Source: Escherichia coli (lineage in GTDB: Bacteria > Pseudomonadota > Gammaproteobacteria > Enterobacterales > Enterobacteriaceae). Taken from it: a DNA stretch of 64,000 nt. Location: the NCBI RefSeq assembly GCF_002854065.1, contig NZ_CP024147.1, one strand, 5' to 3'. Shown here piece after piece: positions 3,833-6,800 of the stretch. The stretch's first letter is position 1. Each line of letters begins with the position of its first letter. Made by a program: the position numbers.

Positions 3833-6800
3833 TAATTCGTTATTCAACGAGACGTAAAAACGCCGACCAGTGGTCGGCGTTTTGCTTTATAGCGAAAGCG
3901 TTACAACTGGTAGTATAACGCTCTGATATCTATTAATTAGCTTGTCGCTAACTGTACTTGCGGTTCTTCATCTTTAACTTTGATAAGCGTCCACAGCGCA
4001 ATGGCGCCAATAATGTCAAAGAAAGCCAGGGCAATAAAGAACGGCGCGAAGCCGATAATGTGAACGAATGCCCCGATAAACAGGTTGAAAATCAACTGAC
4101 CGCTCCACGCACAGGCTCCTGCCATACCCACTGCGGTAGCTACTTCGTCTTTTTTGAACAGATCGCCACCCAGAGTTGCTGCTACAGTAGAAAGACATTG
4201 ATGCGAGAACGCGCCAATACTAATCAGTAATACGGCAATGTAGGGATTTTCGACAATACTCACCAGGCCAATCGTCATCATAATGACGGCTGCAATAGTG
4301 AAGGTAATTCTTCGTGAGTTAATTAAACTCACGCCGCGATCGTGGAAGAACTTCGCGACAAAACCACTGGCTAAACAGCCGAGATCGCCCAGCAGGAAAG
4401 GCAGCCAGACGAACATGGCAATTTCTTTCAGGCTAAAATGCAGCGTTTCGACGAAGAAAATCGGCACCCAGAAGTTAATGGTTCCCCATGCCGGGTCTGC
4501 GAGAAAACGCGCGATGCCAATCCCCCAGAAATTACGTTGGCTGAGGATATGCTTGATTGACGTTTTTTCTTTCTTATCTGTTTTAAGATGCTGTTCTTGC
4601 CCTGATTCAATATAGTGGCGCTCTTCATCAGAAAGGCGTTTGGCATCTTTCGGATCTTTATAACAAAAGAACCAAAATAAAGCCGCGAGCAAAGCAAGGC
4701 TACCTGAAACAATAAACGCAAATTGCCAGCTATGAAACATAATGCACCAGGCAATCAACGGTGGAGCAAGCATCGCGCCGAGTGAGGTGCCCATATTGAA
4801 AACACCTGTCGCCACGCCACGCTCTTTTGCCGGGAACCATGTTGATGCGGTTTTTACACCCGCCGGAATTGCCGACGCTTCGCTGAAACCCATCAGGGCG
4901 CGCATAAATGCCAGACCTGACCACGTTCCGGTTAGTGCATGGCCCATTGTCGCCAGGCCCCAAATTGCGGCACATATCGCAAAACTTAACTTCAGACCCA
5001 CGGTATCAATAAAGAAGCCCATTACCGGTTGCCCTAATGTATAGGCCAACTGGAATGCACTGACAATCCATGAATATTGCTCTTTAGTTATTCCGGTTGT
5101 CTCCATAATCGTTGGAGCCGCAATACCTAACGCCGTTCTGTCCAGATAATTGATTACAGTGATAAAGCATACGAGGGCAATCATATGCCACCGGTAATTC
5201 GGTAATGACTCCAACTTATTGATAGTGTTTTATGTTCAGATAATGCCCGATGACTTTGTCATGCAGCTCCACCGATTTTGAGAACGACAGCGACTTCCGT
5301 CCCAGCCGTGCCAGGTGCTGCCTCAGATTCAGGTTATGCCGCTCAATTCGCTGCGTATATCGCTTGCTGATTACGTGCAGCTTTCCCTTCAGGCGGGATT
5401 CATACAGCGGCCAGCCATCCGTCATCCATATCACCACGTCAAAGGGTGACAGCAGGCTCATAAGACGCCCCAGCGTCGCCATAGTGCGTTCACCGAATAC
5501 GTGCGCAACAACCGTCTTCCGGAGCCTGTCATACGCGTAAAACAGCCAGCGCTGGCGCGATTTAGCCCCGACGTATCCCCACTGTTCGTCCATTTCCGCG
5601 CAGACGATGACGTCACTGCCCGGCTGTATGCGCGAGGTTACCGACTGCGGCCTGAGTTTTTTAAATGGCGGAAAATCGTGTTGAGGCCAACGCCCATAAT
5701 GCGGGCGGTTGCCCGGCATCCAACGCCATTCATGGCCATATCAATGATTTTCTGGTGCGTACCGGGTTGAGAAGCGGTGTAAGTGAACTGCAGTTGCCAT
5801 GTTTTACGGCAGTGAGAGCAGAGATAGCGCTGATGTCCGGCAGTGCTTTTGCCGTTACGCACCACCCCGTCAGTAGCTGAACAGGAGGGACAGCTGATAG
5901 AAACAGAAGCCACTGGAGCACCTCAAAAACACCATCATACACTAAATCAGTAAGTTGGCAGCATCACCCATCTACTGCGCACGAATAAAACTGCCATCCG
6001 GCTGGCGGGTAAACAGGACCTGTTGATTATTCCCCGTATCAATAGTTAAGCCCGTCACCACGCCGCTGGCGTTCTGGCGGATTTTCACCATCTGCCCGTT
6101 TTGCAAATTACTCAGCGGCTTACCCGCGCCTTCTACCTGCGCCATTGCATAGACATCGGTAGCGGGCAGTCCGTGGTCGCGGAACAGCTGCGCCATCGTT
6201 TTACCGGGTTCGACACGGTAAGAGCGCCATTGATTATCAATTCCGCTATCTGGCTGGAATGGTTGTGTTTGGGTAGTTTGCGGCTGTTCTTCTGGCTGGC
6301 CTTCCTGTATAGGTTCTGGAGCGACCGGAGCCACCTGATCAGGATCATTTTGTGGTGTGACTAATTGCGCCCGCAGCTGTTCTTCTGTCGGCGGTTGTGA
6401 TTGCGACTGAATATCTAACTGCGCTTCACGCGTCACCACCGGCGCGTTGGGCGTATCATCAGATGGAAGCAGAAATCCGACCACCAATATAATGGCGGCA
6501 ATAATGATCCCCCGACGATGCATCGGCGGCAGCGGGTCCATGAAGCGAAAATTGTCCGGCGCGTGCCAGACTTTCTCCAGGGTTGGTTTTAGTTCAAAGC
6601 GCCCGGGCATGGTTTCCTCCTGCTCCGCGTCTTGTTCCTCAATCATAGCCTATGAATAAGCTAACGCTATGATGTCCGTGGTAAACCCGCCTTTATTATA
6701 TTCATACGGGATATTGCTATTGTTTCTTTTTCCCCGGGATTTGTCATCATTCCTGCGACAAAGTTTTACCCAAAGAAGTGTGGCTGATATGCTGCCCGCT

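Follow-up and report, generated by a model that had tools for sequence, protein, structure and literature searches.

The question raised by this locus is whether the IS1 copy found there, whose A-run frameshift site and reading frames are intact, is able to transpose, and what part it has had in shaping the DNA on either side of it. An original prediction had taken the slippery motif and the uninterrupted frames as signs of a transposition-competent element, able to drive further rearrangement at the locus. The window considered here, that is, the whole stretch of Escherichia coli DNA that was analysed, comprises 64,000 nucleotides. A canonical A6C signal within a complete and competent IS1, which likely inserted at this place and then gave rise to an adjacent deletion, very probably accounts for what is observed.

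The IS1 element and its frameshift signal

Only one IS1 copy is present in the 64-kb window. Its extent and component parts are the following:

5201..5968, minus strand: complete IS1 element of 768 bp (IS1R / 'IS1B-family' allele), matching annotated copies at 768/768 positions
5946..5968, minus strand: left terminal inverted repeat (IRL), GGTGATGCTGCCAACTTACTGAT, the same in all reference alleles
5201..5223, plus strand: right terminal inverted repeat (IRR), GGTAATGACTCCAACTTATTGAT, the same in all reference alleles
5934..5961, minus strand: promoter-like site CTGCCA-16-TATGAT, overlapping IRL, from a consensus scan
5656..5664, minus strand: slippery site TTAAAAAAC (A6C), by sequence match, with its role as given in PMC12428005
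5638..5913, minus strand: insA, coding for the InsA repressor, 91 aa plus stop, with a GTG start (IS1 nt 56-331; Pfam)
5216..5740, minus strand: insB' frame (-1), open between IS1 nt 229 and its stop codon, nt 751-753 (Pfam DDE_Tnp_IS1)
5216..5913, minus strand: insAB' fusion (5659..5913 joined to 5216..5659 by a -1 slip), a transposase of 232 aa, reconstructed

The annotated copies to which the element is identical over its entire length are found in many genomes and plasmids. Its two terminal repeats, which are imperfect and of about 23 bp, bound exactly 768 bp, an arrangement for which the expected number of chance matches is 0; both the length and the repeats are those of the IS1 family. 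The promoter-like site agrees in position with the weak IS1 promoter PIS1, which overlaps IRL (PMC12428005), and it comes from a scan for promoter and terminator consensus sequences in which site counts were not greater than those of shuffled sequence.

The slippery motif had been reported at 5650-5665, and TTAAAAAAC does lie there on the minus strand, with the heptamer A-AAA-AAC at 5656..5662; it occurs a single time in the window. As a bare 9-mer it is not significant, with 0.71 occurrences expected by chance per window and at least one found in 51 of 100 shuffles, and it is from its context inside IS1 that the motif gets its meaning. It corresponds to IS1 nt 305-313, at an offset of 249 from the insA start (0 modulo 3), is phased in the insA frame as TTA-AAA-AAC and precedes the insA stop codon, TAA at nt 329-331. 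The insA and insB' frames overlap at nt 229-331 and the motif, falling within these limits, is therefore placed inside the overlap as had been claimed, in phase and 5' of the insA stop, which is the arrangement of IS1. Both frames are also uninterrupted as stated, insA over its 91 codons and insB' from nt 229 to 753; the insB ORF as conventionally drawn, with an ATG start, corresponds to 5216..5719 on the minus strand.

A -1 slip on the A-run yields a fusion of 232 aa with the sequence ...FRHLK-KLRPQ... around the junction. The Lys-Lys at this point follows the database model and the protein sequencing reported by Sekine and co-workers, the Asn alternative altering no comparison made here. The exact InsAB' sequence already exists in public databases as 'IS1-like element IS1B family transposase' (WP_095033700.1). 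Pfam profiles for the insA domains were matched (PF03811 / PF12759), with Zn_ribbon_InsA complete at residues 1-36 of InsAB' and HTH_Tnp_IS1 complete at residues 43-86. The IS1-type DDE catalytic domain was recovered by a whole-domain profile match at residues 102-232 (DDE_Tnp_IS1, PF03400, profile positions 1-131 of 131, E = 3.7e-78), and the NCBIfam equivalog NF033558 (transpos_IS1) gave InsAB' 243.8 bits, the cut-off being 100.

Judged on its sequence, this A6C site is the canonical signal for programmed -1 ribosomal frameshifting in a complete IS1. The frequency with which the bare 9-mer is expected by chance would fit an A-run devoid of any role in frameshifting, but such a reading is extremely improbable for a run that occupies the homologous position, in the homologous phase, of an IS1 identical at 768/768 positions, within the only insA/insB' overlap.

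The regulation exerted by InsA and InsAB' and the role of the motif have been described (PMC12428005, PMC12903888), and expression of the window copy would follow the same course. Transcription would start at the weak promoter overlapping IRL (PMC12428005), and most ribosomes would translate insA and stop, producing the InsA repressor, which would bind the ends of the element and repress the promoter (PMC12428005). A small fraction of ribosomes (about 2% is the figure cited) would slip by -1 on A-AAA-AAC, bypass the insA stop and enter insB', giving rise to the 232-aa InsAB' protein with its zinc ribbon, HTH and DDE parts, which would act mainly in cis on the terminal repeats. A downstream RNA structure has been proposed as an aid to IS1 frameshifting (PMC12428005). 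No Rfam family was detected between positions 5000 and 6200 of the window (scan at E <= 1). For the 110 nt that begin at the slippery site, the MFE fold is a long imperfect hairpin of -32 kcal/mol. Among the alleles compared below IS1 nt 305-392 are invariant, the nearest variable sites being 304, 393 and 396.

The design has parallels in IS3-family elements (IS911, IS150, IS3) and in dnaX, where an A-rich slippery heptamer is likewise situated in a two-frame overlap and sets the ratio between the regulatory protein and the fusion enzyme (PMC12428005). The families are nevertheless separate and differ in transposition chemistry (copy-out-paste-in for IS3), and IS1 is distinguished from the IS3 family by its short overlap and by a frameshift rate reported to be low, about 2% or less.

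Allele comparison and transposition competence

An intact motif and intact frames are insufficient to establish competence, since the K-12 copies IS1B, IS1C and IS1D all keep TTAAAAAAC and the 232-aa fusion frame and yet are reported to be immobile. In K-12 BW25113, more than 99.9% of IS1 transposition is due to IS1A and IS1E (PMC12428005, 2025). The remaining copies named there, IS1B, IS1C, IS1D and IS1F, hardly move at all, with a rate of about 1 per 10^10 cells or less (PMC12428005). The authors of that report suspected the L81F change as the cause of IS1B/C/D immobility (PMC12428005). Consensus transposase over-supplied in trans does mobilise the immobile K-12 copies, which means that their ends work and that the defect resides in the supply or function of their own transposase (PMC12903888).

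The window element was compared base by base with K-12 IS1A, IS1B, IS1C and IS1D and with both IS1 copies of plasmid R100. Seven alleles were set side by side, with amino-acid changes given relative to K-12 IS1A:

Window IS1: L81F, S130R
R100 IS1, both copies: 1 nt from the window copy (nt 127, synonymous, Thr24); L81F, S130R
K-12 IS1B / IS1C: 1 nt from the window copy (nt 704); L81F, S130R, L217Q
K-12 IS1D: 4 nt from the window copy (nt 50, 262, 631, 704); L81F, S130R, H193Y
K-12 IS1A: 8 nt from the window copy; reference for the amino-acid changes

All variable sites among the seven alleles are confined to nt 50-704, the terminal repeats being invariant, and the inverted repeats and promoter region of the window IS1 are identical to those of K-12 IS1A and R100. 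Alignment to reference IS1 disclosed no inactivating substitutions, with one synonymous nucleotide separating the window copy from those of R100. The latter (NC_002134.1, 21225-21992 and 93514-94281) share 767/768 nt with it and have the same InsA, InsAB', inverted repeats, promoter region and A6C motif; the differing position, nt 127, is C in R100 (ACC) and T in the window (ACT), both codons specifying Thr24. Unlike the R100 copies, the window IS1 is chromosomal, is located at a deletion junction and has no target duplication. The R100 IS1 is presumably the element used for the classical work on IS1 transposition and frameshifting, and it was reportedly active in the classical assays of the Ohtsubo and Chandler laboratories.

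The K-12 copies IS1B and IS1C, reportedly classed as type II by Umeda and Ohtsubo, also share 767/768 nt with the window copy, T127 included, and have the same motif, frames and inverted repeats, but carry A704, which results in L217Q within the DDE domain, whereas the window copy, IS1A and R100 have L217. Both are 'non-consensus' copies in PMC12428005. IS1D is the only allele varying at nt 50, its G50T change lying upstream of insA. The window IS1 is thereby separated from the immobile IS1B/C by one amino acid and from IS1D by one amino acid plus one upstream base; L217Q of IS1B/C and H193Y together with G50T of IS1D are both absent from it. The mobile 'consensus' copies IS1A and IS1E (PMC12428005) agree with the window IS1 in architecture, inverted repeats, A6C motif and 760/768 nt. 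The 8 nt by which IS1A differs translate into two residues, L81F in the HTH common to InsA and InsAB', and S130R; the codon directly 5' of the slippery site is CAT in the window and CAC in IS1A, a synonymous difference.

Evidence of movement comes from other copies of the same allele. The identical 768-bp sequence is flanked by a perfect 9-bp duplication, GTGTTATTA, in the chromosome of E. coli DA33137; on a Salmonella plasmid it lies within an 8-bp duplication, ATTAATCA. A 99.5%-identical IS1 copy (comparison locus L006) has a 9-bp duplication. Target duplications of 8-9 bp, as expected of IS1, are in this way found at other copies of the very allele present in the window, and the same allele has therefore transposed in nature; in four of six other identical copies examined the duplication was absent. 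The allele is also very widespread, with 100% matches in many chromosomes and plasmids from several genera, and IS1-bearing E. coli genomes have a median of 11 IS1 places, reaching 40 or more. Duplication-flanked identical copies could, in principle, have moved by mobilisation in trans.

The IS1 of pOXA-48 was considered as direct experimental evidence and dropped, NC_019154.1 having no annotated IS1 in the 50 kb examined. The pOXA-48 IS1 that was tracked while transposing belongs to another plasmid variant (preprint 10.1101/2024.03.01.582297).

All sequence features needed for transposition are present in the window IS1, and its proteins are those of the R100 IS1. The element is probably transposition-competent, and probably so at the usual low, InsA-limited rate, transposition being reportedly repressed by the dose of InsA. 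It might instead be structurally intact but functionally near-silent in the manner of K-12 IS1B/C/D, with the L81F and/or S130R background lowering transposase function or raising repression, in which case only homologous recombination, or transposase provided in trans, would in practice act on it. The window copy does carry both changes relative to the mobile IS1A/E, including L81F, the very change named as suspect for copies reported immobile despite an intact A6C (PMC12428005), and those copies respond to transposase given in trans (PMC12903888). Near-silence is nonetheless unlikely: both R100 copies encode exactly the window protein, the window IS1 is free of the further private change found in each immobile K-12 copy, the exact allele is very widespread and bears clean 9-bp and 8-bp duplications at unrelated sites, and IS1 transposase reportedly works for the most part in cis (PMC12428005, PMC12903888). 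The competence asserted in the original prediction finds support in the R100-identical proteins and in the duplication-flanked allele, although the argument then offered for it, from motif and frames alone, does not suffice, as IS1B/C/D illustrate.

The same comparison bears on the K-12 copies themselves. The protein with L81F and S130R as its only changes is that of the R100 IS1, of the window IS1 and of the most widespread IS1 allele of Enterobacteriaceae. The suspicion against L81F is hard to reconcile with the R100-identical proteins, the duplication-flanked copies and the wide spread of the allele, and L217Q and H193Y/G50T appear better candidates for the cause of immobility. It can be tentatively proposed, at close to even likelihood, that the immobility of K-12 IS1B/C and of IS1D may stem from the private changes L217Q and H193Y and/or G50T, respectively, and not from the shared L81F.

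Loss of a neighbouring island and other IS1 events at the locus

The surroundings of the element are defined by two junctions and two genes:

5200..5201, no strand: left junction, with IRR directly joined to the MFS transporter gene (judged against the intact genes of strains 97.3 and YZ22PE68)
5968..5969, no strand: right junction, with IRL 3 nt downstream of the ytfB stop codon, 5972-5974 (flank comparison)
3937..5200, minus strand: MFS transporter gene, 5'-truncated, the last remnant of an island, co-oriented with IS1
5972..6610, minus strand: ytfB, intact, directly upstream of insA and in the same orientation

The window IS1 has no target duplication, its flanks being CGGTAATTC and CATCTACTG, which share no repeat of 7-14 bp, because 6,995 bp have been lost between them. 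The loss was recognised by comparison with strain 97.3 (O68:H12), which is 99.98% identical to the left flank of the window (196-5200) and 99.87% identical to the right flank (5969-32000), has no IS1 at this place and retains, intact, a 7-kb island that separates the MFS transporter gene from ytfB; strains YZ22PE68 and CUWW06 have the same island arrangement. In the window, the 768-bp IS1 replaces the 6,995 bp that correspond to positions 5006..12000 of the 97.3 locus (L010). The left junction lies 14 nt inside the MFS coding sequence, which has lost these first 14 nt, with the native ATG, and its upstream region. Also lost are the genes for a FAD-dependent oxidoreductase, an acyl-CoA:acetate/3-ketoacid CoA transferase, an enoyl-CoA hydratase, a sugar-phosphate isomerase/epimerase and a 3-ketoacyl-ACP reductase, together with the gene of a TetR/AcrR regulator except for its last 20 nt, the segment constituting an accessory catabolic island.

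When 80-bp probes across each junction were searched against 5,426 complete E. coli genomes, neither junction was found, a true match being expected to give an E-value of about 1e-32, and no genome with both junctions was found among them. Since relatives with near-identical flanks retain the island, the deletion is private and evolutionarily recent. The uniqueness of the junction pair among the genomes searched, and the frequency with which IS1, as a repeat present in many copies, causes breaks or false joins in short-read assemblies, might suggest an assembly artefact in which two IS1 copies bracketing an intact island were collapsed into one. This is very unlikely, however, because single-IS1 deletions with other end points exist in several finished genomes, which makes the structure biologically ordinary, and the sequence has no sign of a join error. 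A mosaic breakpoint, with imported DNA ending at IS1, was also considered, prompted by the flank identities to YZ22PE68 (locus L008), 100% on the left and only 97.3% on the right; it was rejected on the grounds that 97.3 matches both flanks with its island intact.

A missing duplication at an insertion sequence may result from adjacent deletion, from recombination between two IS copies or from an insertion coupled to rearrangement (PMC11708052). Here the most likely course is that a single IS1 inserted within the island or beside it and then mediated an adjacent deletion through intramolecular transposition. Homologous recombination between two directly repeated IS1 copies, one inserted in the MFS gene at its codon 5 and one located 3 nt beyond ytfB, would equally have removed the 7 kb and left one hybrid IS1 with unmatched flanks. 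Its outcome is the one seen, a single IS1 without duplication whose flanks were once 7 kb apart, and the two routes cannot be told apart by the end product. Dozens of IS1 copies are present in relatives, and duplications are often missing because IS copies have recombined with one another (PMC11708052). Against this stand the absence of the presumed single-insertion junctions from the 5,426 complete genomes and the larger number of events required, namely two insertions in the same orientation plus recombination as opposed to one insertion and one deletion, and two-copy recombination is accordingly a genuine possibility but not the probable one. Adjacent deletion is favoured because it needs fewer events; no deletion intermediate was found among the 5,426 complete genomes.

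Other strains present their own IS1-associated changes at this locus. Strain 2017.17.03CC lacks the segment equivalent to positions 11404..18246 of the YZ22PE68 locus (L008) and strain JSMCR1 lacks the segment equivalent to 11281..16129, in either case an IS1 of the same orientation is present, with other end points on both sides. In strain CP8-3 the island is present in a TRAP-transporter version, along with an IS1 that has a 9-bp duplication. In strain 99-3165, two inverted IS1 copies of a 94%-identical type bracket an inverted segment from ytfB to cpdB', and the 9-mer GAAATTCCC adjoins both copies, an arrangement that is the footprint of replicative inversion. With many further left-flank partners found among the genomes searched, the locus is one that IS1 has hit repeatedly and independently across strains. 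The claim that IS1 can rearrange this locus is borne out by the 6,995-bp loss at which the window copy sits without a duplication and by the independent deletions and inversion of the other strains and, if anything, it was too cautious.

The position of the element next to ytfB may also affect its activity. A terminator placed upstream of IS1 lowers transposition (PMC12428005). The consensus scan found no terminator-like site between ytfB and IRL, and because ytfB is on the same strand, with its stop 3 nt before IRL and no such site in between, read-through from ytfB into insA is plausible and could make the window copy a relatively active donor.

Implications for the strain and for IS1 annotation

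IS1 and its A6C frameshift are already textbook knowledge, and nothing new on the mechanism emerges from this locus. For the strain itself, what matters is that IS1 has cost it the accessory island between rplI and ytfB, a catabolic gene cluster under TetR control, and that the transporter gene left behind is promoterless and 5'-truncated. An apparently functional IS1 is still at the locus and can promote further deletions, inversions and recombination. For the annotation of the family, the case calls for caution, in that an intact slippery site and open frames do not separate mobile from immobile IS1 copies. The allele comparison indicates which substitutions are worth testing and, if the private changes of the K-12 copies were indeed the cause of their immobility, the window copy would represent their unmutated, active progenitor and the 2025 report would be corrected on this point.

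Junctions of the window IS1 and the replaced island

The IS1 copy of the window lacks a target duplication at its junctions (5200/5201 and 5968/5969) and stands in place of a 6,995-bp segment (5006..12000 in the strain 97.3 locus) from an accessory catabolic island under TetR control, which has been kept in the near-identical strains 97.3, CUWW06 and YZ22PE68. Neither the left nor the right junction found a match among 5,426 complete E. coli genomes. The IRR-side junctions in the window (5193..5206) and in strain JSMCR1 (5220..5235 of the L002 locus) sit at sequences resembling IS1 termini; on the IS1 strand, CATTACC is followed by GAATTACC in the former and by GGTAATGG in the latter. 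IS1 has been reported to favour end-like targets; such junctions may reflect this preference or be a coincidence.

Rearrangements involving IS1 in other strains

At the same locus, strain 99-3165 (L007) carries an inverted ytfB-to-cpdB' segment bracketed by two IS1 copies in inverted orientation:

L007 11738..12505: IS1 copy, 94% identical to the window IS1
L007 20615..21382: IS1 copy, inverted relative to the first, 94% identical to the window IS1

The 9-mer GAAATTCCC adjoins each of them, a footprint left by replicative inversion of the intramolecular type. The identical-allele copies of strains ECCWS199 and AR_0085 (L015 and L016) have the IRL-side flank TTGAGCGCATTTGTC in common and differ in their IRR-side flanks, which lie in type III secretion (ETT2-like) genes; they look like nested adjacent deletions derived from a single ancestral insertion.

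In the window, cpdB (2',3'-cyclic-nucleotide 2'-phosphodiesterase; 12512..14484, minus strand) is broken up, with one ORF at 12512..13597 and another at 13615..14484. Annotations of two close relatives, 97.3 and 2017.17.03CC, list it as frameshifted; in CUWW06 it contains an IS1. At 60042..60427 the window has four tandem repeats, each about 96 bp long and made up of REP/BIME-type palindromes; single REP-like units lie at 18125, 27105, 33346, 36526 and 46438.

Allele and transcriptional context

Compared with the window IS1, the K-12 copies IS1B, IS1C and IS1D, all reported as immobile, combine an R100-type background with private changes: IS1B and IS1C have L217Q (nt 704), and IS1D has both H193Y (nt 631) and G50T. 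L81F, the change suspected in the 2025 study (PMC12428005), is one that these copies have in common with the IS1 of plasmid R100 and the widespread window allele.

Downstream of insB', an open frame runs into the element:

3937..5214 (minus strand): 5'-truncated MFS transporter ORF, extended into IRR

This gene is deprived of its native ATG and first 14 nt, and its frame remains open into IRR, where an in-frame TTG lies 1 nt past the insB' stop codon; the N-terminus predicted from this codon would be MESLP- instead of the native MNKIK-. Since ytfB, insA, insB' and the truncated gene all share the same orientation, its expression by read-through is conceivable.

On the other side, only 3 nt (within window 5969..5974) separate the stop codon of ytfB, encoded on the same strand as insA, from IRL, with no terminator-like site in this interval. 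Because blocking upstream transcription was experimentally shown to reduce IS1 transposition (PMC12428005), the ytfB context could raise the activity of this copy.
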